Source of the DNA: Minisyncoccota bacterium
GTDB taxonomy: Bacteria > Patescibacteriota > Minisyncoccia > Phycocordibacterales > UBA9973
Assembly (NCBI GenBank): GCA_018061035.1
Contig: JAGOUX010000004.1
Location: 1 to 55,929, forward strand
DNA length: 55,929 nucleotides
Reading direction: 5' to 3'
Each line of letters begins with the position of its first letter. The first letter of the stretch is position 1. Made by a program: the position numbers and the translations under genes. Below, one piece after another: positions 4,684 through 51,652 of this stretch. The notes below the pieces were generated by a model. The model searched no databases and had not been told where the DNA came from. It saw only the letters and a list, made by a program, of their open reading frames with translations.

Positions 4684-6450
4684 ATGCAGTCAAATGAGAT
4701 AAGAAATAGATTTTTAAAGTTTTTTGAGAAGCGGGGACATAAAATAATTCCTTCTGCTTCGCTAGTGCCTGAGAATGATCCCTCAGTACTATTTAATACC
4801 GCAGGTATGCAGCCACTTGTGCCATATTTGCTCGGACAGGATCATCCTATGGGAAAGAGAATAGCCGATGTTCAAAAATGCGTACGTACTGGAGACCTAG
4901 AAGATATAGGTGATAATAGACATTTTTCATTCTTCGAAATGATGGGTAACTGGTCTTTCGGAGATTATTTCAAGGAGGACGCTATTAAGTGGAGCTATGA
5001 ATTTTTAACTAATGGTGATGATAAGCTAGAAGGAGATAAAGGTTTAGGGTTAGATATAAATCGCTTATACGTGACAGTTTTCGAAGGGGATGAAAACGCT
5101 CCGAGGGATACAGAGTCTGCAGAAATTTGGAAATCTTTGGGTGTACCAGAGAATAGAATATATTTCTTGGGCGCAGAAGATAATTGGTGGGCGGCGGGAG
5201 ACAATGGTCCATGTGGTCCTGACACTGAAATGTTTTACGACATGTCTGGTGCTGTAGGTGATCTATCCAAGGAGGAATTCCTTCAGGCAGTAAAAAATGA
5301 AGATGTGATTGAAATTTGGAACGATGTGTTTATGGAATATGAGAAGAAGGATGGAAAAGTAATTGGTAAATTAAAACAAAAGAATGTGGATACCGGTGCT
5401 GGATTAGAGCGCATTACTGCTGTAATGCAGGGCAAGAAAACGGCATATGAGACTGATTTGTTTTCGTCCGTTCTGGATTTAATCAAAAATGTTGCAGGAG
5501 ATAAATACAATGACAAGGCGGCCAGAATTATTTCTGACCATATTCGTGCATCTACATTTTTAATTGCTGATGGAGTAATACCATCTAATAAGGATCAAGG
5601 TTACGTATTACGTCGATTGCTTAGACGTGCTGTGCGTTATGCCGATCTTTTGAGTATTAATCCTGTGCATTTAAGCGAAATCATTTTTGCATTTATTGAT
5701 ACATATAAGCAAAATTACCCTGCATTGTTCGAAAAGGGAGAGTTCATAAAGGAAACAATTTTGGAGGAAGAAAATAAATTCAGAAAAACACTCGAGCATG
5801 GACTGAAAGAATTCGAAAAGGGGGTAGACCCGTTTATTTTGGCTACTACATACGGTTTCCCGATTGAGCTCACATTGGAATTAGCTAAAGAAAAAGGCCA
5901 GACTATAAATCTTGATGAATTTAATACCAAGATGGCCGAGCACCAAAAGCTTTCTCAGACAGCATCCGCAGGTATGTTCAAGGGCGGGCTTGCTAATCAC
6001 AATGAGAAAACTATCCGGCTTCATACCGCACACCATCTATTGCTCGCTGGGCTACAAACTCTAGTAGATAAGAGCATTAAACAGCGAGGAAGCAATATCA
6101 CCGAAGAGAGATTGCGCATAGACTTCATGTGTGACCACAAACTTACTGATGAAGAGAAGAAAAAGGTTGAGGATTGGGTGAATGAAAAGATCCAGGCAGG
6201 ATTAAATGTAATTCGAAGGGAGATGCCATTGTCTGAGGCAGAAAAGATAGGCGCAGAAATGGAATTTGGCGCGAAGTATCCCGAAGTTGTGTCTGTATAC
6301 TTCATCGAAGATGAGAATGGCACACCGATATCCAAAGAATTCTGTGGTGGTCCTCATGTAAACAACACAAAAGAACTCGGAATATTCAAGATTCAAAAAG
6401 AAGAAGCAGTTTCGGCAGGTGTGCGCAGAATAAAAGCAGTGCTTTCTTAG
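4684..6450 (+). CDS. alaS: alanine--tRNA ligase, compact form (588 aa)
   Basis: N-terminus RFLKFFEKRGH..PSASLVP..DPSVLFNTAGM. Editing-domain motifs HTAHHLL and CGGPHV are present. No C-Ala region follows. Confidence 0.9.
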   Translation: MQSNEIRNRFLKFFEKRGHKIIPSASLVPENDPSVLFNTAGMQPLVPYLLGQDHPMGKRIADVQKCVRTGDLEDIGDNRHFSFFEMMGNWSFGDYFKEDAIKWSYEFLTNGDDKLEGDKGLGLDINRLYVTVFEGDENAPRDTESAEIWKSLGVPENRIYFLGAEDNWWAAGDNGPCGPDTEMFYDMSGAVGDLSKEEFLQAVKNEDVIEIWNDVFMEYEKKDGKVIGKLKQKNVDTGAGLERITAVMQGKKTAYETDLFSSVLDLIKNVAGDKYNDKAARIISDHIRASTFLIADGVIPSNKDQGYVLRRLLRRAVRYADLLSINPVHLSEIIFAFIDTYKQNYPALFEKGEFIKETILEEENKFRKTLEHGLKEFEKGVDPFILATTYGFPIELTLELAKEKGQTINLDEFNTKMAEHQKLSQTASAGMFKGGLANHNEKTIRLHTAHHLLLAGLQTLVDKSIKQRGSNITEERLRIDFMCDHKLTDEEKKKVEDWVNEKIQAGLNVIRREMPLSEAEKIGAEMEFGAKYPEVVSVYFIEDENGTPISKEFCGGPHVNNTKELGIFKIQKEEAVSAGVRRIKAVLS

Positions 6451-46324: not shown

Positions 46325-47338
46325 ATGGAAAATAAAGAGAAAATAGTGCTTACAGGCGACCGTCCGACAGGAAGACTTCATTTGGGACATTACGTAGGCT
46401 CAATAAAAAATCGTGTAGCTTTACAGAATGAAGCAAGTAAGGCTTACTATATGGTGGCTGATATTCAAGCGCTCACAGATAATGCTGATAATCCAGAAAA
46501 AGTTCGCAGTAATGTGATGGAGGTAGTGCTCGACAATTTGGCTTGTGGAGTAGATCCAAAGAAAACCACTTTTTTCATACAATCGATGATTCCAGAGATT
46601 GCAGAGCTTACCGTATTATTTATGAATTTGGTCACAGTCCAACAGCTATCTCACAATCCTACTATCAAAACAGAGCTCAAAGAAAAAGGTTTGGCCGAGG
46701 GTACTCCGCTCGGATTTATGGCATACCCAGTGTCTCAGGCGGCAGATATACTTTTTTGCAAAGCTAATACTGTGCCTGTCGGGGTTGATCAGATGCCTGT
46801 ACTTGAGCAAGCGAATGATATTGTCAAAAAATTCAATGCGATATATGGAGTCGATTTATTTCCCAAGATTACCGGAGTGACGAGCTCTATCCCACGACTT
46901 GTAGGGATTGATGGCAATGCAAAAATGTCCAAATCTCTCGGTAATTGCATATTCCTTTCAGATTCCGACAAAGAAATAGAGGAAAAAGTCATGCAAGCTT
47001 TTACTGATCCTGATCATGTGCGGGTAGAAGACAAAGGTAAGGTAGAAGGCAATGTTGTTTTCACATACCTCGATGCATTCGATGAGGATAAAGCCGGCGT
47101 AGCAGAATTGAAAGAAAAATATCAACAAGGGGGATTAGGAGATGTGGTGCTTAAGAAAAGACTTACGAAAGTACTTGTAGATATCATCTCTCCAATACGA
47201 GCAAAACGTGAGGAATATGCCAAAGATCCTCAATATGTAATGAGCATTCTAGAAAAAGGAATTGCTGTTGCTCGTGAGGACGCAAAAAAAACCATGGAAG
47301 AAGTTCGCAAAGCTATCAAAATAGACTATTTTAGCTAA
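46325..47338 (+). CDS. trpS: tryptophan--tRNA ligase
   Basis: TGDRPTGRLHLGHYVG (HIGH) and KMSKS. Confidence 0.95.
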   Translation: MENKEKIVLTGDRPTGRLHLGHYVGSIKNRVALQNEASKAYYMVADIQALTDNADNPEKVRSNVMEVVLDNLACGVDPKKTTFFIQSMIPEIAELTVLFMNLVTVQQLSHNPTIKTELKEKGLAEGTPLGFMAYPVSQAADILFCKANTVPVGVDQMPVLEQANDIVKKFNAIYGVDLFPKITGVTSSIPRLVGIDGNAKMSKSLGNCIFLSDSDKEIEEKVMQAFTDPDHVRVEDKGKVEGNVVFTYLDAFDEDKAGVAELKEKYQQGGLGDVVLKKRLTKVLVDIISPIRAKREEYAKDPQYVMSILEKGIAVAREDAKKTMEEVRKAIKIDYFS

Positions 47339-47622
47339 TGAAAAATAATATCGAACAGTACAAACAAGAAGCAGTGGAAGTAATCCACAAAATTGGTAAG
47401 GATAAGAACCTGCTCGCACTTTTCTTGCGAGATATCCTAACCCCACGCGAATTCGAAAATATCGGCGTGCGCTGGCAGATAGTGAAGCGCTTGGCGAAAG
47501 GGGAGCATCATGCTGCCATAGCTGAGAGTCTTCATCTAGGTGTGGCGACTGTCACTAGGGGGTCCCGAGAAATGCGCAAAAAAGATGGCGGACTCCAAAA
47601 AGCATTGAAGGCTTTGAAATAA
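47338..47622 (+). CDS. TrpR-family (YerC/YecD-like) DNA-binding protein
   Basis: LTPREFENIGVRWQIVKRL...IAESLHLGVATVTRGSREM. The ATG overlaps the trpS stop (TAATG). Confidence 0.8.
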   Translation: MKNNIEQYKQEAVEVIHKIGKDKNLLALFLRDILTPREFENIGVRWQIVKRLAKGEHHAAIAESLHLGVATVTRGSREMRKKDGGLQKALKALK

Positions 47623-47868
47623 AAGCTAATTTTTACTTTATATATTGGTAATTTGAGTTTTCCACAGTAAGGCAATTTATTTACTTGCTTTATTTTTTTA
47701 TATATACTAGCATACTAGTATGATGATATTAAGAAATTTACAAATAAACACAAAGTATTGGCGCAGTTTTAGCAGCCAAGCTTTTGCGTCGATTTGTTAG
47801 TTTCTTTCTCTAGATAAGGAATTCACACACCGGCGTAAAAAGCGTCGTTTGTTCTTTATGGAGGCAGT

Positions 47869-48078
47869 ATGCCGTTGGATAAGCAAGTGTCTACTGAAGC
47901 AGTATCGCAGGTAAGTGGTTCTTACGAAACGGTTGGTGTGGGTGCCCATACTTTCATTCGCACGAGCCGTGAAGATAGTTCTGTTCTCGAGTGTCTGACT
48001 TGCGAGAAAAAAGGCACTGTAGAGCAGCTCGAAATCGAGCCATGTGAGTCGAAAGGTTCTCGGCGCGCTGGCTGGTAA
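47869..48078 (+). CDS. hypothetical small protein, cassette region F ORF1
   Basis: GGAGG lies 4 nt before the ATG. G+C-enriched. Contains CLTCEKK. Confidence 0.45.
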   Translation: MPLDKQVSTEAVSQVSGSYETVGVGAHTFIRTSREDSSVLECLTCEKKGTVEQLEIEPCESKGSRRAGW

Positions 48079-48107
48079 CAACTTCATCTTGAAAGGAGGT
48101 GATAATC

Positions 48108-48218
48108 ATGGTTCGTAACTGGATTGCTGCGGATGGGGACGGAAGTTCAACTCTAGCGCCTTGGCCTTACAAACATCGGCCAGGCAAGGTTCTCAAGTCG
48201 AAGGAGCCCAAGAAGTAA
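48108..48218 (+). CDS. hypothetical 36-aa peptide, cassette region F ORF2
   Basis: Hand translation gives MVRNWIAADGDGSSTLAPWPYKHRPGKVLKSKEPKK. AAAGGAGGTG lies 7 nt before the ATG, and a GC-rich hairpin follows at 48245..48272. Confidence 0.4.
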   Translation: MVRNWIAADGDGSSTLAPWPYKHRPGKVLKSKEPKK

Positions 48219-48244
48219 TACGGGCTTTATGCAAATCGTTTGGG

Positions 48245-48272
48245 GCGTCGCGTGTGGGATATCACGCGGCGC
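48245..48272 (+). terminator. GC-rich hairpin after region-F ORF2
   Basis: GCGTCGCGTG-loop-CACGCGGCGC. The T-run is weak. Confidence 0.5.
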
Positions 48273-48291
48273 TTCCCAAATTTCTTTACAC

Positions 48292-48319
48292 TTGCATTAT
48301 TTTATATTTACGCTATATT
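48292..48319 (+). promoter_or_regulatory. promoter upstream of leader copy L1
   Basis: TTGCAT (48292-97), 16 nt, TATATT (48314-19). Confidence 0.45.
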
Positions 48320-48394
48320 AAAAATGTGAACAGATTACAAGCAAACATTATCGTCGTCGACCTGAAGGGCTTCTTTTTTAAGAAGTACTCTTTC

Positions 48395-48510
48395 ATTTAG
48401 AAGACTGATGCTTGCGCTGTAACAACTCTCAAACAAACTACAACCCAAACACCAGCCTTCTAAAGTAAGACTGGTTTTTACTTTATCGGGTGTGGGTGTT
48501 CTTTCATCAA
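48395..48510 (+). ncRNA. structured 5' leader, copy L1 (candidate attenuator/riboswitch-like element)
   Basis: About 115 nt alignable to 49004..49125. Terminator hairpin CCAGCCTTC..GACTGG plus T-run (48452-48479). Upstream TTAGAAGACTG can pair with CAGCCTTCTAA. Confidence 0.55.
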
Positions 48511-48523
48511 CGGAGGCAAGCAT

Positions 48524-48844
48524 ATGCGAGGAAATACGGGCAAGGATCACGGTTCCAGCAATCCCGGATTTTTTGGTGGCTCTGATCATGGAGACACCGA
48601 GGGTTATGCCGAGATTGCTCGGCGAATCCGCGAAGCGGGGTCTGCGCAACCAGTGCAGACATCGGTCGAGAGCCCCAGGCTCGCGATGGTTCATGATCCC
48701 TTCGAGCTGCCGGAGACGGGGTCGCATCAGGCGTATACCAATCCGTGCTCGGAAAATTACGTTGCCACGGCCGCCAAGCCGCCACAGCGTGTCGTCGAGC
48801 GAGTGCCCTTTCGTATGAGTTCCAATCTCTCACGCAGAGACTAG
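48524..48844 (+). CDS. hypothetical protein, cassette region F ORF3
   Basis: ACGGAGG lies 7 nt before ATG 48524, so this frame is preferred over the overlapping 48492..48818 and antisense frames. A 13-bp-stem hairpin follows the stop. Confidence 0.5.
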   Translation: MRGNTGKDHGSSNPGFFGGSDHGDTEGYAEIARRIREAGSAQPVQTSVESPRLAMVHDPFELPETGSHQAYTNPCSENYVATAAKPPQRVVERVPFRMSSNLSRRD

Positions 48845-48857
48845 GGCTCAATCGGTC

Positions 48858-48889
48858 AGCGCCGCGTGTCCATCATGACACGCGGCGCT
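48858..48889 (+). terminator. GC-rich hairpin after region-F ORF3, sequence-related to 48245..48272
   Basis: AGCGCCGCGTGTC-loop-GACACGCGGCGCT (13-bp stem). Confidence 0.55.
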
Positions 48890-49003
48890 ACCAAAACTTA
48901 ATTTCGAAATAATTAATACATTACAAATAATTTATATATGTCATTATATGAAAGTGAATAAAAACCGACAGGAAATTAATAATGTTTTCTTTTTCAGCCC
49001 TCA

Positions 49004-49125
49004 ATTTAGAAGGCTGATCTTTGTGCTGTAAAAATAAACTCTCAAAAACGAACTACAACCCAAACACCAGCCCTCTAAAGGGGCTTTTCCTTTTTTAGGC
49101 GGTGTGGGGTTCTTTTTGTTCGTCG
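49004..49125 (+). ncRNA. structured 5' leader, copy L2
   Basis: Shares ATTTAGAAGnCTGAT...CTCAAA..ACTACAACCCAAACACCAGCC with L1. Terminator AGCCCTCTAAAGGGGCT plus T-run (49069-49096). Confidence 0.55.
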
Positions 49126-49152
49126 AAAACCAAATAGAGAGGATGTGAGGAA

Positions 49153-49521
49153 ATGAGACTTCCAGTGTTTCAAAAGTTGTTCTTTGTCGTGGATCATTCC
49201 GGAAGCTGTGGTGGAACTAGTGATGGCGGACGCAATCCAAGAAAAAGAAACAAGAAAGAGGTTGCTGAGAGAAATGCCGAAAAAGCAGCCGACGCCTTTT
49301 TCAATGCTCAGAATGACGTCGTTCGCGTGCAGAAAGAATTGGAAAACGCGAACGAGCACTACTGGAACACATTTTGGAGCATGAAGAAGTTTTGGGGAGG
49401 TAATCTCGTTGAGGCGGCTATGATGGTCGATGAGATGGAGAATAATTTGGTCACTGCTAGGGAGGTTTTGGCATCAGCCAGAGTCGCCGCTATCGCCGCC
49501 GCCAAAGTCGCGAAGGTGTGA
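49153..49521 (+). CDS. hypothetical coiled-coil-like protein, cassette region F ORF4
   Basis: Preceded by the second copy of the structured leader. TGAGGAA lies directly before the ATG. The C-terminal half is Ala/Glu-rich. Confidence 0.5.
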   Translation: MRLPVFQKLFFVVDHSGSCGGTSDGGRNPRKRNKKEVAERNAEKAADAFFNAQNDVVRVQKELENANEHYWNTFWSMKKFWGGNLVEAAMMVDEMENNLVTAREVLASARVAAIAAAKVAKV

Positions 49522-49664
49522 AAGATTCCATTGATTAGGTTTTGAGCTAAGAGATTGGTGGGATTGAGAGTTTGTGAAAACTCTACAAAAATTCACAGGT
49601 GATGGGGTCTACCTATCAAGTGGCTCTTAATGAAGTTCTTTGGAGGACGAAAGGAGGTGATGAA

Positions 49665-49928
49665 ATGATTCCTCAGAGTAGCTACTGGTTTGGTCCTGAC
49701 GACGAGCCACAAGGTGAACCACAACCCAAAAGTGACGCTCCGAAACTCGAGAATTTCTTCGATTTTCTCGACGAAGTTCTGCGGGGGCTGGTGCGGATGC
49801 CTGAAGGGGTGTTGGTGCACAACTCACACGAGTACTCACTGGAGCGACGACGGTGCAATACCTGCGATGCCGACGGCGAAAACCTCCAACAGCATTGCGT
49901 CGGCATTTGGCCGACCTTCGGCAACTAA
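49665..49928 (+). CDS. hypothetical small protein, cassette region F ORF5
   Basis: AAAGGAGGTG lies 6 nt before ATG 49665, the same SD context as ORF2. Followed by the 3' module 49936..50005. Confidence 0.5.
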   Translation: MIPQSSYWFGPDDEPQGEPQPKSDAPKLENFFDFLDEVLRGLVRMPEGVLVHNSHEYSLERRRCNTCDADGENLQQHCVGIWPTFGN

Positions 49929-49935
49929 TAGCAAC

Positions 49936-50005
49936 AGGTGTAGATCCTGATCACTCTACAGAAAGCCAGCAACACTCGAAAGGAGGAAATGTTGCTGGCT
50001 TTTTA
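49936..50005 (+). repeat. 3' module family, copy F (small hairpin plus terminator)
   Basis: AGGTGTAGATCCTGATCACTCTACAGAAAGCCAGCAACACTC...TGTTGCTGGCTTTTT. Confidence 0.8.
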
Positions 50006-50025
50006 TATTGTGTTAATATGTATTT

Positions 50026-50252
50026 AGAGCCGTTGAGCCAGCTGACACTGGGGAGGTAAAGGAAGACCCTTCGACTTTGCTCAGGGCAAGATCGAAGATG
50101 TAGAACCTTTCGGGTAAGCCCGTTAAAGCTGTAATGAAGTATCCTCCTTCGCTAAAGCTATGGAGGACAAGAAGTAGGGTGGCACCGCGAAATATCGCCC
50201 CTGCAAATTTATCAGATTAAAAGATAAGTTTGGAGAGGCGATTTTTTGTTTT
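50026..50252 (+). promoter_or_regulatory. T-box leader upstream of aspS
   Basis: AAGTAGGGTGGCACCGCG (50172-50189) matches the T-box consensus AANNNGGGTGGNACCGCG. AGAG..GTTGA near the 5' end is GA-motif-like. A terminator helix ATCGCC(50194-99)/GGCGAT(50237-42) is followed by a T-run. A GAC (Asp) candidate specifier lies at 50065-50067. Confidence 0.8.
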
Positions 50253-50266
50253 CTCCACAGTAAATT

Positions 50267-51652
50267 ATGAAAAACAGAATATATATAAAAGATCTTAAGG
50301 GAAGTATTGGGCAAGAAGTAATTATTGCCGGATGGGTGGATGTGCGTCGAGACCAAGGCAAAATGGTCTTCTTTGATATGCGAGATATGACTGGCAAGGT
50401 GCAATGCGTGACCCTACCAATTCATCCCGAAGCAATAGCTAGTGCAAAGGAAATCAGGCCAGAGTGGGTGCTGATCGTAAAAGGCATAGTGAAGGCTCGC
50501 ACTGATAAAAACGCAGAAGCTGGTGGTGGTGTCGAGATTGAGGTTACAGGTATAGAAGTACTAAATAAAGCAGAGACCACTCCTTTTCAGATCACCGAAT
50601 CTACATCAGGCATCAACGAGGATTTGAGAATGAAATATAAGTATCTTGATCTCCGCACAGAGCGAATGCAGAAGAATATTCGTATGCGAGACAAGATTAT
50701 CACCTTTTTCCGCAAATACATGCACGACAATGATTTTATCGAAATTGAAACACCAATATTAATGAAGGGAACTCCGGAAGGTTCTCGTGAGTATGTAGTA
50801 CCTTCTCGAATTTTCAACGGACAGTTTTATGTGTTGCCTCAATCTCCTCAGCAGTTCAAACAGCTTTCTATGGTGGCTGGTTTTGAAAAGTATTTCCAAA
50901 TCGCTCGCTGTATGCGTGACGAAGACACACGAGGTGATAGACAGCCGGAATTCACCCAGCTCGACTTCGAGATGTCATTCGTAACTCAAGAAGAAGTTCT
51001 TGAATATACAGAAGCGATGTTCATTGAACTCGTAAAGACCGTGTACCCAGAGAAAAAGATAACTCAGATTCCTTTTCCAAGAATTTCATACGCTGAATCT
51101 ATGGAGAAGTATGGATCAGACAAGCCGGACATGCGAGTGAATAAGGAAGATCCGAATGAGCTTGCTTTTGCATGGGTTCTAGATTTCCCAATGTTTGAAA
51201 AGACAGATGATGGCGAGCTTCAGGCAGTGCATCATCCATTTTGCTCTATCAAAGAGGAGGACAAGGCCAAGTTTATGAGTGGGGAGGATATGTTTTCAAT
51301 TCGTGCCAATGCTTATGATCTAGTATTAAACGGCTACGAACTTTCTTCAGGATCTATTCGTATCCACGAGCGAGAAGTACAAAAGAGAGTATTCGAATTA
51401 TTGAAAATCAGCGAGGAAGTACAGCAGGCAAAATTTGGCCACATGCTCGAAGCATTTACTTTTGGCGCACCTCCACACGGAGGCTTCGCTCCCGGTATTG
51501 ATCGTATTGTTATGATCCTCCAAAACGAGCCAAACATTCGTGAAGTCATAGCCTTCCCAAAGACAGGTGAAGGTAGAGACCTTATGATGGGTGCTCCAGC
51601 TCCAATCACTGACAAACAGCTTAAAGAGCTCGGAATTAAACTCGGCAAATAA
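50267..51652 (+). CDS. aspS: aspartate--tRNA ligase, compact (461 aa)
   Basis: OB-fold N-terminus, QSPQQFKQL, class II motifs (FQIARCMRDED, GGFAPGIDR). Confidence 0.93.
   Translation: MKNRIYIKDLKGSIGQEVIIAGWVDVRRDQGKMVFFDMRDMTGKVQCVTLPIHPEAIASAKEIRPEWVLIVKGIVKARTDKNAEAGGGVEIEVTGIEVLNKAETTPFQITESTSGINEDLRMKYKYLDLRTERMQKNIRMRDKIITFFRKYMHDNDFIEIETPILMKGTPEGSREYVVPSRIFNGQFYVLPQSPQQFKQLSMVAGFEKYFQIARCMRDEDTRGDRQPEFTQLDFEMSFVTQEEVLEYTEAMFIELVKTVYPEKKITQIPFPRISYAESMEKYGSDKPDMRVNKEDPNELAFAWVLDFPMFEKTDDGELQAVHHPFCSIKEEDKAKFMSGEDMFSIRANAYDLVLNGYELSSGSIRIHEREVQKRVFELLKISEEVQQAKFGHMLEAFTFGAPPHGGFAPGIDRIVMILQNEPNIREVIAFPKTGEGRDLMMGAPAPITDKQLKELGIKLGK

Follow-up and report, generated by a model that had tools for sequence, protein, structure and literature searches.

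Leader-peptide attenuators are known from Enterobacteria (trpL, pheL/pheA, pheM/pheST, leuL, ilvL and hisL), and T-box leaders from Gram-positive-type bacteria, in which a specifier codon and the T-box bulge read the uncharged tRNA directly. For mycobacteria, polycysteine leaderless uORFs acting as short-ORF attenuators are presented in the abstract of one study (bioRxiv 10.1101/834739), and an ilvBNC attenuator is presented, again at the level of the abstract, for the actinobacterium Corynebacterium glutamicum (PMC11857589).

The window, that is, the whole stretch of 55,929 nucleotides analysed here, carries two elements, L1 and L2, which very probably belong, as Phe-class members, to a family of ribosome-mediated (leader-peptide) transcription attenuators spread across the Patescibacteria. 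As in the Enterobacteria, these elements combine a predicted short leader ORF bearing a codon run of the regulated amino acid with four-segment pairings (1:2 in L2 and most homologues, the 2:3 antiterminator, and the 3:4 terminator followed by a U-run), the leader stop being placed where a terminating ribosome would block segment 2, and among their predicted targets in homologues there are likewise biosynthesis genes (pheA, leuA) and a gene for an aminoacyl-tRNA synthetase (pheS). In contrast to the Enterobacteria, however, (i) similarity is absent both in sequence and at the level of covariance models, the region giving no score with any Rfam leader family; (ii) the leader ORF has no Shine-Dalgarno (SD) sequence and starts at the predicted transcription start; (iii) one near-identical scaffold serves at least six amino acids, the codon run alone being exchanged; (iv) stops are conserved in all three frames; and (v) most copies precede orphan small ORFs. 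With T-box leaders (RF00230) the elements share amino-acid-specific transcription attenuation upstream of aminoacyl-tRNA synthetase and biosynthesis genes, but L1 and L2 contain neither a specifier codon nor a T-box bulge and have a predicted translated ORF instead. No T-box score was obtained for L1/L2 with Rfam at E up to 10, the sole T-box of the region being the one listed below upstream of aspS. The mycobacterial uORFs, as their abstract describes them, resemble our elements in having a regulatory short ORF with AUG or GUG at the 5' end of the transcript and homopolymeric runs (poly-Cys) that signal to downstream genes how much of one amino acid is available (bioRxiv 10.1101/834739). Judged from the abstracts, the Actinobacteria attenuators belong to another phylum and use another RNA scaffold, the Patescibacteria elements having a canonical intrinsic terminator, a covarying antiterminator and family-wide conserved sequence.

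Organisation of the two copies in the window

L1 and L2 represent the same element in duplicate. The 21-mer ACTACAACCCAAACACCAGCC is present at exactly two places (48437-48457 and 49052-49072) and gave no match in any of 100 shuffles, in agreement with the duplicated leader proposed by the first-pass annotation. The copies share a 40-nt block with 90% identity and a 31-nt block with 84% identity, and an nhmmer search of the window with the family profile returned L1 and L2 (76 and 90 bits) as the only copies. The parts of both units and the neighbouring T-box are as follows.

48291..48319, plus strand: predicted L1 promoter, with -35-like CTTGCAT at 48291-48297 and -10 TATATT at 48314-48319, from alignment to the promoter of 31 homologues
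48326..48400, plus strand: predicted L1 leader ORF, with GTG at 48326, peptide VNRLQANIIVVDLKGFFFKKYSFI and stop TAG at 48398-48400
48397..48422, plus strand: L1 antiterminator 5' strand (segment 2), TTAGAAGACTGATGCTTGCGCTGTAA, partner 48438-48463
48438..48463, plus strand: L1 shared strand (segment 3), CTACAACCCAAACACCAGCCTTCTAA, partner either segment 2 or the 3' half of the terminator
48451..48486, plus strand: L1 intrinsic terminator, stem 48451-48459 with 48467-48475, one C.A mismatch, then TTTTTACTTTAT
48489..48496, plus strand: 3' side of the L1 outer pairing, GGTGTGGG, able to pair with CCCAAACACC at 48444-48453
48512..48844, plus strand: gene 3' of L1, with SD GGAGG at 48512-48516 and an orphan ORF at 48524-48844 (106 aa, GC 0.59)
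48920..48947, plus strand: predicted L2 promoter, with -35-like ATTACA at 48920-48925 and extended -10 TGt-CATTAT at 48939-48947, aligned to the family promoter
48954..49031, plus strand: predicted L2 leader ORF, with GTG at 48954, peptide VNKNRQEINNVFFFSPQFRRLIFVL and stop TAA at 49029-49031
48995..49000, plus strand: L2 segment 1, CAGCCC, able to pair with GGCTG of segment 2 in the minimum-free-energy fold
49006..49031, plus strand: L2 antiterminator 5' strand (segment 2), TTAGAAGGCTGATCTTTGTGCTGTAA, holding all three conserved stops TAG, TGA and TAA, one per frame
49053..49078, plus strand: L2 shared strand (segment 3), CTACAACCCAAACACCAGCCCTCTAA
49069..49096, plus strand: L2 inner intrinsic terminator, AGCCCT-CTAAA-GGGGCT (stem 49069-49085), then TTTCCTTTTTT
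49101..49119, plus strand: 3' half of the L2 outer stem in the minimum-free-energy fold, GGTGTGGGGTT, partner AACCCAAACACC at 49058-49069, then a second U-rich run CTTTTTGT
49137..49521, plus strand: gene 3' of L2, with SD-like GAGAGGA/GAGG and an orphan ORF at 49153-49521 (122 aa, GC 0.49)
50024-50205, upstream of aspS: T-box leader (RF00230)

The 11-nt pairings reported by the first-pass annotation are present in both copies and correctly placed: TTAGAAGACTG (48397-48407) pairs at 10 of 11 positions with CAGCCTTCTAA (48453-48463), leaving one A.C mismatch, and TTAGAAGGCTG (49006-49016) pairs at 10 of 11 with CAGCCCTCTAA (49068-49078). In both copies, however, this pairing is the mere base of a hairpin of about 26 positions, formed by 48397-48422 with 48438-48463 in L1 and by 49006-49031 with 49053-49078 in L2. 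The terminator hairpins and T-runs it had located are likewise found in both copies; the L1 stem (48451-48475), which precedes TTTTT, was, like the L2 terminator, also picked up by a consensus scan. A third pairing thought to bracket the terminator, CCCAAACACC with GGTGTGGG, exists in both window copies but does not extend to the family, since a GGTGTGG-like motif 3' of the terminator was found in 21 of 135 homologues. This outer pairing is thus a subtype feature and not a family-wide one. The 5' limits given to the leaders were too short: a predicted promoter and leader ORF extend each unit upstream by about 70 nt.

By the codons of these predicted leader ORFs, L1 and L2 are both assigned to the Phe class. 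The L1 leader contains Phe codons TTC TTT TTT at 48371-48379 and Ile/Val codons at 48347-48358; it would start 6 nt past the -10 box, its frame is open as far as the conserved TAG within the 5' arm, and it is probably leaderless. In the L2 leader, the Phe codons TTC TTT TTC lie at 48987-48995, and its NVFFFSPQF core was also found in three other elements (L049, L106 and L130). An in-frame ATG is present at 48948, 5' of the L2 leader GTG. Folding of 48985-49120 gives, as minimum-free-energy structure, the segment 1:2 hairpin together with the terminator. When L2 RNA is folded to 49098 the antiterminator is obtained, and when it is folded to 49120, segment 1:2 and the terminator. L1 is atypical in lacking the CAGCC segment 1 and in using the rare TAG frame, and its terminator is weaker and contains a mismatch; without a ribosome, the fold of L1 favours the antiterminator.

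Homologues and alternative structures

L1 and L2 belong to a widespread Patescibacteria family of probable amino-acid-sensing transcription attenuators that was not catalogued before. An exact 18-mer scan of GTDB genomes gave 57 stretches, among which 29 loci with 30 elements share the context, nearly all from Patescibacteria MAGs. Approximately 26 matches in genomes from outside the Patescibacteria were due to chance or lay inside coding sequence, and matches on viral contigs (L176 and L177) lacked the surrounding context and were likewise attributed to chance. A 5'-arm pattern scan of metagenomes added 117 further loci, and the pooled set comprises 140 unique elements from Patescibacteria genomes and metagenomes. 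The view that the sequence matches no known class was borne out: over the whole window, Rfam 15 gave nothing at gathering score for any amino-acid leader (Phe, Leu, Thr, His, Trp) or other family, and at E up to 10 the L1/L2 region gave chance hairpin-type matches alone (miRNA precursors, weak sRNA), mostly on the minus strand. Six related loci gave nothing at E <= 0.001, and no T-box leader was found at this threshold in the aspS-linked relatives among them. The element is not described in the literature consulted on leader peptides or attenuation in Patescibacteria, Parcubacteria, CPR or Saccharibacteria, a coverage that is incomplete and does not prove novelty.

The terminator and the antiterminator are mutually exclusive, having one strand in common (alignment columns 82-90), and both covary. 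About 140 homologues were found and both helices are conserved and covarying in about 136 of them. In the terminator helix, both sides are changed in 8 of 9 pairs, the compensatory cells number 50 where shuffles give 9.7 (none of 500 reaching 50), and 86% of the cells are paired compared with 31–57% when the partner is slid. For the antiterminator, both sides are changed in 7 pairs, 51 cells are compensatory compared with a shuffled value of 29.7 (none of 500 reaching 51), and 81% of the cells are paired compared with 30–46%, all of these values being drawn from a family in which many sequences are interrelated and not independent. The segment 1:2 duplex has a family mean of -9.1 kcal/mol, compared with -5.9 kcal/mol for shuffled upstream sequence; it is clearly better than its own shuffles in 101 of the 140 elements and is present in L2 and absent in L1.

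Hardly any variation exists in the upper 15 positions of the antiterminator hairpin, which include four conserved mismatches and thus yield no covariation evidence; because homologues were collected by exact patterns placed in either arm, the apparent invariance is inflated. Such strict conservation falls outside what the attenuation model explains. It could be accounted for by factor-dependent antitermination, the upper hairpin (CTGATATTTGCGCTGTAA with TTACAACCCAAACACC, with conserved A.C and C.C mismatches) being a binding site for a conserved protein or RNA that would stabilise or disrupt the antiterminator, replacing the ribosome or adding to it. Simple pairing would not need such sequence conservation, and across Saccharibacteria, Paceibacterota and Minisyncoccia the near-invariant upper hairpin shows four conserved non-pairs and zero compensatory change. 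The search patterns nevertheless account for part of this invariance, no candidate for such a factor emerged, and a factor would leave the conserved start codon, the open frame, the three-frame stops and the match between codon run and gene unexplained. We consider this possibility unlikely and keep the leader-peptide attenuator as the preferred reading.

Leader ORFs, codon runs and downstream genes

Alignment of 31 homologues gives a sigma-70-type family promoter (TTGCA/TTTACA, about 16–17 nt, (TGn)TATAAT), and 117 of 137 elements have a -10 hexamer with a score of at least 6. The -10 box is followed, 6 nt on, by an invariant TG with A or G in front of it, providing GTG (n = 86) or ATG (n = 31) as start; given this distance, the mRNA is probably leaderless. 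The predicted leader ORFs comprise 19–30 codons. From this start, the frame is open to the arm stops in 30 of 31 elements of the first set and in 108 of 117 of the larger one, compared with 2/31 and 8/31, then 9/117 and 13/117, for the other two frames. The antiterminator 5' strand contains three conserved stops, one per frame, at -7, +1 and +15 relative to CTGAT, and 107 of the 108 open frames end on them (TAA 81, TGA 21 and TAG 5).

A few codons upstream of the arm, in-frame homopolymeric codon runs are found (FFF(F), LLL(L), III, VVVV, CC(C), YYY and aromatic mixes), and the part of the leader that varies between copies is this run for one amino acid. Among 118 classified leaders, the classes are FFF (31), FF (12), LLL (16), III (8), VVV (5), CC/CCC (6), YYY (1) and mixed ILV (5), while 24 have no run and 8 are too short for assignment to a class. 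Among the leaders examined, polar amino acids (His, Thr, Arg) never formed a run. The leader peptide has a conserved N-terminus, (M)NKNIQxN, a hydrophobic middle and, frequently, the C-terminus RRLIFAL, as might be expected if the product of the short ORF were a small hydrophobic peptide with a function of its own, for instance a type I toxin or a bacteriocin-like molecule, and the hairpins just terminated its transcript. Such a peptide is very improbable: depending on which frame is used, the C-terminus reads RRLIFAL, NLEG or ..I; the hydrophobic stretch is not long enough to form a membrane helix; and all that is conserved in the middle is the presence of a homopolymeric run, the amino acid of which follows the downstream gene.

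An SD-bearing ORF follows 121 of the 140 elements. In 7 homologues, the codon run matches the first recognisable downstream gene. A VVVV leader precedes valS (850 bits), a CCC leader cysE (244 bits) and an LLL leader leuA (690 bits), all above cut-off; an FFF leader precedes the prephenate dehydratase gene (pheA), an FFFF leader pheS and an FWKLYF leader a DAHP synthase gene. The YFFF leader precedes the pheA/tyrA cluster, where a class IV aminotransferase and a fusion of prephenate dehydrogenase and dehydratase were recognised along with a prephenate-dehydratase match that is weak and lies below cut-off.

These data also bear on the earlier proposal of a riboswitch or attenuator. The exclusive terminator and antiterminator stand, as an attenuator; a ligand-binding riboswitch does not, the probable sensor being the predicted leader ORF that had been overlooked. 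If the leader RNA bound a small molecule that chose between terminator and antiterminator, mutually exclusive, conserved structures matching no known class would be in order. However, the switching hairpin is the sole conserved RNA, with no further multi-helix core, the region that differs between copies is the predicted ORF with its codon runs, and a single ligand cannot explain the same scaffold before valS, cysE, leuA, pheA and pheS. A metabolite-binding riboswitch is thus scarcely credible here, and the attenuator remains the reading that we follow.

Most copies, including both copies of the window, precede orphan small ORFs instead of biosynthesis genes, and the orphans behind the window copies are GC-richer. 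The ORF downstream of L1 has no homologue but itself among 5.8 billion proteins, a homologue search with the ORF downstream of L2 was without result, and Pfam gave no match in any of the five small ORFs of the region; in the ORFs flanking the region, Pfam matched trpS, a TrpR-like protein and aspS alone. Neither Pfam nor the homologue searches linked the genes behind L1 and L2 to phenylalanine. The downstream orphan ORFs are not depleted in the sensed amino acid (F 0.046 versus 0.037, with L and C if anything higher, on small numbers).

At aspS loci, 21 of the 24 classified elements are of the Phe class, and this retention of leader class at orthologous loci points to vertical inheritance. It also argues against mobility, part of a very unlikely reading in which the minus strand would be the functional one, as an antisense sRNA, a recombination or transposition site (attC, IS200/IS605 ends) or a mobile repeat. 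The element is indeed multi-copy and often found in tandem cassettes, and it is the minus strand that gives the better fold (z = -2.4 and -2.2, versus -1.2 for the plus strand). This better fold arises because A.C mismatches of the plus strand become G.U, A.C being the commonest transitional mismatch in general, and the promoter, start codon, open frame, SD-led genes and U-runs all lie on the plus strand. Integron attC sites and IS200-IS605 ends were considered for the tandem cassettes with imperfect hairpins and rejected, cores and recombinase genes being absent: no attC R'/R'' cores (GTTRRRY/RYYYAAC) were read at the hairpin ends, and no integrase or transposase was seen in the ORFs immediately flanking L1/L2.

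Proposed mechanism and its meaning for the Patescibacteria

The preferred reading, ribosome-mediated attenuation, is classical trp/phe/leu-type attenuation on one conserved, re-codable scaffold. The transcription start site, leaderless GUG initiation, translation of the leader, premature 3' ends and the amino-acid response are predicted from sequence comparison. Each unit would have its own promoter, with transcription beginning at or beside the GTG/ATG and giving a probably leaderless RNA, from which the ribosome would translate the leader ORF of about 25 codons containing the short Phe codon run. When Phe-tRNA is plentiful, the ribosome would reach the stop within the antiterminator 5' strand and, owing to this position of the stop, the terminating ribosome would mask that strand; the shared strand (..CAAACACCAGCC..) could then pair downstream, so that the terminator and its U-run would form and transcription would stop. 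A ribosome stalled at the Phe codons would in contrast cover segment 1 and leave the antiterminator 5' strand free, the long hairpin would form in place of the terminator, and RNA polymerase would enter the SD-led downstream ORF. Without a ribosome, segment 1 would pair with segment 2, resulting again in termination, in L2 and most homologues.

The genomes of Patescibacteria (CPR) are tiny and encode few recognisable regulators and hardly any amino-acid biosynthesis, and to our knowledge the way in which these bacteria sense the nutrient supply from their hosts is largely uncharted. The family would equip them with amino-acid-specific sensors for Phe/Tyr, Leu, Ile, Val and Cys on a single portable RNA scaffold. 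The element offers a direct, testable handle on starvation sensing in these uncultivated bacteria. It also points to dozens of orphan small proteins whose induction on shortage of a given amino acid is probable, and it would fill an annotation gap, Rfam being without a model for it and leader ORFs of 19–30 codons being missed by gene callers. The family is moreover a natural case of modular attenuator re-coding, which may serve as a design principle.

A wider reading, which we put forward tentatively and hold to be rather doubtful, is that Patescibacteria use one sequence-conserved leaderless chassis, with a run of 3–6 codons swapped, as a general amino-acid-starvation switch that also controls lineage-specific, GC-richer orphan small proteins, the invariance of the chassis reflecting a second function. 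If this were true, the second function could be a trans role of the attenuated transcript of about 130 nt or a dedicated binding partner. There would then be a large, fast-turning-over set of orphans in tandem promoter-attenuator-ORF cassettes beside housekeeping genes, and these obligate episymbionts would possess a starvation regulon of orphan effectors, together with a few cognate aminoacyl-tRNA synthetase and biosynthesis genes.

Two copies of one element between trpS and aspS

L1 and L2, the two copies of the attenuator element in the window, lie between trpS and a TrpR-like gene on one side and aspS on the other. This region (window 47623-50266) carries five small plus-strand ORFs, mostly of higher GC than their surroundings, with strong SDs and without a match in Pfam. 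The first-pass annotation had described a duplicated leader, and the duplication of one element as L1 and L2 is confirmed: the window has exactly two occurrences of the 21-mer ACTACAACCCAAACACCAGCC (0 expected), the copies are 90% identical across a 40-nt block and 84% across a 31-nt block, and a search of the window with the family profile recovered only these two. All the pairings it had described were found in place, its 11-bp "anti-terminator" being the base of a longer hairpin of ~26 positions, and the Rfam search it had suggested gave no family match for L1 or L2, whether at the gathering score or with E relaxed to 10.

Features of the L1/L2 region (window coordinates)
46325-47338, trpS
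47338-47622, TrpR-like gene
48314-48319 (+), L1 -10 box
48326 (+), L1 leader start GTG; peptide VNRLQANIIVVDLKGFFFKKYSFI, stop TAG at 48398
48397-48422 and 48438-48463 (+), L1 arms
48451-48475 (+), L1 terminator, then TTTTT
48524 (+), start ATG of the ORF downstream of L1
48920-48947 (+), L2 promoter
48954 (+), L2 leader start GTG; peptide VNKNRQEINNVFFFSPQFRRLIFVL
48987-48995 (+), L2 Phe codons
48995-49000 (+), L2 segment 1, in the leader ORF
49006-49031 (+), L2 segment 2, 5' strand of the antiterminator; holds the TAA stop at 49029
49053-49078 (+), L2 segment 3, common to antiterminator and terminator
49069-49085 (+), L2 terminator; U-run to 49096
to 49111 (+), L2 outer stem; second U-rich run
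49153 (+), ATG of the ORF downstream of L2, preceded by an SD
50267-51652, aspS

Two GC-rich paralogous hairpins without a good U-run (GCGYCGCGTG...CACGCGGCGC; window 48247-48276 and 48858-48889) are located at the 3' ends of the ORFs preceding the two promoters; together with the leaders, they indicate that whole intergenic regions of ~305 nt are paralogous and form a repeated cassette. L001, a metagenome contig of 1013 nt, is identical to the window across ~950 nt and ends at L2, where its positions 1-70 show clustered differences from window 48990-49055 in the 5' arm and loop. Probably the repeat marks a break in the contig or a chimeric junction, and the differences hint at further copies of the element in the same population.

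A scan of one genome per GTDB species with the 18-mer ACAACCCAAACACCAGCC gave 57 stretches, with the whole context common to 29 loci with 30 elements; the sources were mostly Paceibacterota, Nomurabacteria, Zambryskibacteria, Minisyncoccia and Saccharibacteria MAGs, a few being labelled only "bacterium". Metagenome contigs scanned with the 5' arm alone, the 3' arm being free to vary, added 117 loci. After removal of duplicates, both scans yielded 140 elements, which were collected by exact patterns in one or other arm and are phylogenetically related to each other. The window AspS shares ~81% identity with its counterparts on contigs L116, L121 and L126, and 75% with the one in L033, a "Patescibacteria group bacterium" MAG, which suggests a Patescibacterium as the source of the window.

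Promoter, leader ORF and codon runs

The first-pass annotation had overlooked a promoter and a putative leaderless leader ORF. In an alignment of 31 homologues from -150, the conserved promoter comprises a -35 box (TTGCA/TTTACA), a spacer of ~16-17 nt and a (TGn)TATAAT -10 box, with an invariant TG, preceded by A or G, 6 nt past the latter. Transcription is expected to start at the purine 7 nt past the -10 box; with this start and no space for an SD, the leader ATG or GTG would stand at the RNA 5' end and the ORF would be leaderless. The frame is open for 19-30 codons, and there are three conserved stops, one per frame, all in the long hairpin's 5' strand (TAG in TTTAGAAG, TGA in GGCTGAT and TAA in CTGTAAA). 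It is open to these stops in 30 of the 31 leaders, the single exception having a stop 5 nt earlier, whereas 2 and 8 leaders are open as far as the arm in the other two frames; in a larger set with automatic detection of the -10 box, the values are 108 of 117 versus 9 and 13. Such an open frame in AT-rich sequence is a strong coding signal, and these ORFs would escape gene callers.

After a conserved N-terminus, (M)NKNIQxN, each peptide carries a short homopolymeric run, in frame and a few codons ahead of the arm (SYFFFSF, FFFFFF, LLLLSPK, AIIISPQ, SVVVVS, CCCS, YYY), or a mixed ILV or aromatic one such as FWKLYF. A functional role of the small peptide itself is unlikely, as its C-terminus varies with the frame used. 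Among 118 classified leaders, FFF was found in 31, FF in 12, LLL in 16, III in 8, VVV in 5, CC/CCC in 6 and mixed ILV in 5; 24 have no run and 8 are too short for classification. The DNA under the runs is triplet-periodic (ATTATTATC, GTCGTCGTC, CTCCTACTC), indicating selection on the codons and not on an RNA motif. Most genes downstream could not be recognised; in every case in which the first recognisable gene is one for an amino acid, it agrees with the run.

Codon runs and downstream genes at family loci
L135, VVVV: valS (NCBIfam 850 bits, above cut-off)
L031, CCC: cysE (244 bits, above cut-off)
L067, LLL: leuA (690 bits; Pfam HMGL-like and LeuA_dimer)
L088, FFF: prephenate dehydratase
L016, YFFF: class IV aminotransferase; weak below-cutoff prephenate-dehydratase match; prephenate dehydrogenase/dehydratase fusion
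L046, FFFF: pheS
L154, FWKLYF: a 74-aa ORF, then DAHP synthase

Two leaders of the Cys class have ProS genes downstream, with a small ORF in between, and these do not clearly belong to the leader's transcription unit. A metabolite riboswitch, the other option of the first-pass annotation, is very unlikely, since genes for at least four different amino acids stand behind one scaffold and the variable part is coding.

In L067, L078, L122, L123 (copy at 5068), L057, L100 and L159, a second tandem Leu-rich leader ORF, e.g. MKHQISKFNTTLTLLLLTQKYLRLLNVFVES, directly follows the first terminator, with a diverged scaffold TTTGAGGTTGCTGAATG...CCACCAGCCTCGAA...TTCGAGGC after it; in L067, the tandem Leu attenuators precede leuA.

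Alternative structures and predicted mechanism

For the pair counts, 136 elements were aligned with MAFFT, without fitting to a structure. The terminator helix has 86% of its cells paired, versus 31-57% with the partner slid; both sides change in 8 of 9 pairs (CACCAG/CTGGTG to AATGAG/CTCATT, TACCAG/CTGGTA or CACCGG/CCGGTG), and its 50 compensatory cells, versus 9.7 in shuffles, were reached by none of 500 shuffles. For the antiterminator, 81% are paired versus 30-46%, seven pairs are altered on both sides (TTAGAAGG/CCTTCTAA to CTCGAAGG/CCTTCGAG, TTGGAAGG/CCTCCAA or CCGGAGGT/..CCCTTCGG) and 51 compensatory cells were counted versus 29.7 (0/500). Since the strand ..AAACACCAGCC.. is common to both helices, they cannot coexist, in agreement with the mutual exclusion first proposed.

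Segment 1, usually YAGCC and located within the leader ORF, can pair with GGCTG of segment 2; this duplex has a mean energy of -9.1 kcal/mol, and shuffling the upstream sequence gives -5.9. Of 135 elements, 110 have ACACCAGCC/GGCTGGTGT as their terminator, and 25, L2 among them, use a shorter inner stem, AGCCCT/GGGGCT. The "third pairing" suggested around the terminator is present in L1 and L2 but in few others: a downstream GGTGTGG-like motif able to pair with CCCAAACACC occurs in only 21 of 135 elements (12 of the 25 with a short inner stem and 9 of the 110 of standard type, including L1). Across the family, two more motifs are conserved shortly after the terminator, TTGTTCTTT and GTTCGTYGAAAAC or TTTGACAAC (window 48497-48505 and 49110-49128).

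The predicted fold of the L2 RNA as far as 49098 is the antiterminator; with the 3' end extended to 49120, the segment 1:2 pairing and the terminator take its place. Stalling at the Phe codons would place a ribosome over segment 1, with segment 2 accessible, and so allow read-through; a ribosome that has reached the stop codon would instead mask segment 2 and bring about termination. L1 is the same kind of element, although atypical in having no segment 1, the rare TAG frame and a mismatch in the terminator stem; possibly it is a leakier or a decaying copy.

We propose that the mechanism is ribosome-mediated attenuation of the textbook kind on a conserved scaffold, in line with the "attenuator" option. 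The trp, pheA, pheST, leu and ilv attenuators are the textbook cases, and the same mechanism is predicted here for a family of Patescibacteria. Codon runs and a (predicted) leaderless start also recall the leaderless regulatory short ORFs, likewise with codon runs, known in Actinobacteria (bioRxiv 10.1101/834739). Function on the minus strand is suggested solely by its better folding, A.C becoming G.U, and is contradicted by every directional signal. The most serious point for a ribosome-only model is the upper hairpin, near-invariant and with four conserved mismatches: a further factor may bind, or the short transcript may act in trans.

Downstream genes and an apparently hypervariable cassette site

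An SD-led ORF stands behind 121 of 140 elements (median 73 aa; median GC 0.50, versus ~0.35-0.43 in neighbouring housekeeping genes). The 319 such ORFs, up to four per element, form 215 clusters, an extreme diversity, and those behind L1 and L2 have no homologue except themselves among 5.8 billion proteins. Some families are kept between contigs (L024/L058; L014/L035/L149; a Cys-rich family of 8), so at least some of the ORFs look like real genes. The GC of genes behind the attenuators is 0.50-0.59 family-wide, versus 0.33-0.45 in neighbouring housekeeping genes (L016, L067, L059, L096, L123), and is raised in recognisable genes (leuA, aminotransferase) and not in orphans alone.

Tandem cassettes spaced by ~500-610 bp are frequent (L041, L068, L080, L083, L101, L125 and the window). 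The locations of the units are conserved: upstream of aspS stand 35 elements, Phe-class in 21 of the 24 classified, and upstream of gyrB 22, mainly of mixed or other classes. A separate terminator lies between cassette and aspS in L111 and in the window, which probably places aspS outside the cassette unit. The window hairpin (49952-50012, plus strand; AAGCCAGCAACA...TGTTGCTGGCTT, then TTTAT; loop CGAAAGGAGGAAA) probably ends the small-ORF unit, and its homologue in L111 has the same position ahead of aspS. In the window, aspS is also preceded by a T-box leader of its own (50024-50205, plus strand); its 45 bits (E = 6e-9) fall short of the 93 that Rfam sets as gathering score, and its Stem I is very short, but the canonical T-box sequence AGUAGGGUGGCACCGCG is there, as is a terminator.

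A third, diverged attenuator, L0, is possible upstream of ORF 47869-48078.

Features of the candidate element L0
47703-47860 (+), putative element; ~5740-5990 in L116 (oriented coordinates)
47723, leader ATG; peptide MILRNLQINTKYWRSFSSQAFASIC with one Trp codon, stop TAG at 47798
47831-47847, terminator CGGCG/CGTCG, then TTTGTTCTTT

Upstream, GCTTTTGCGTCG can compete for the 5' half of this terminator; the fold has z = -3.7, and L0 is kept, with compensating changes GCGCC/GGCGC, in L116, besides the canonical attenuator of that locus. Directly downstream of the TrpR-like gene, overlapping the L0 promoter, lies ATACTAGCATACTAGTAT (window 47704-47721, plus strand), with two ACTAG motifs 8 nt apart and identical in L116; it resembles the E. 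coli trp operator (ACTAGTTAACTAG) and is a candidate operator for the TrpR-like repressor, next to trpS.

Relatives with ~81% identical AspS have other small ORFs and just one canonical attenuator at the same locus, and window 47623-50266 looks like a hypervariable cassette site. In a literature search of incomplete coverage, the element was not found described. The transcription start, translation and starvation response of the family are those predicted by comparison of its sequences. What is new here is the phylum and a family without an Rfam model, the apparent re-coding, for no fewer than five or six amino acids, of a single conserved chassis that has a stop in every frame, and the association mainly with hypervariable orphan ORFs.
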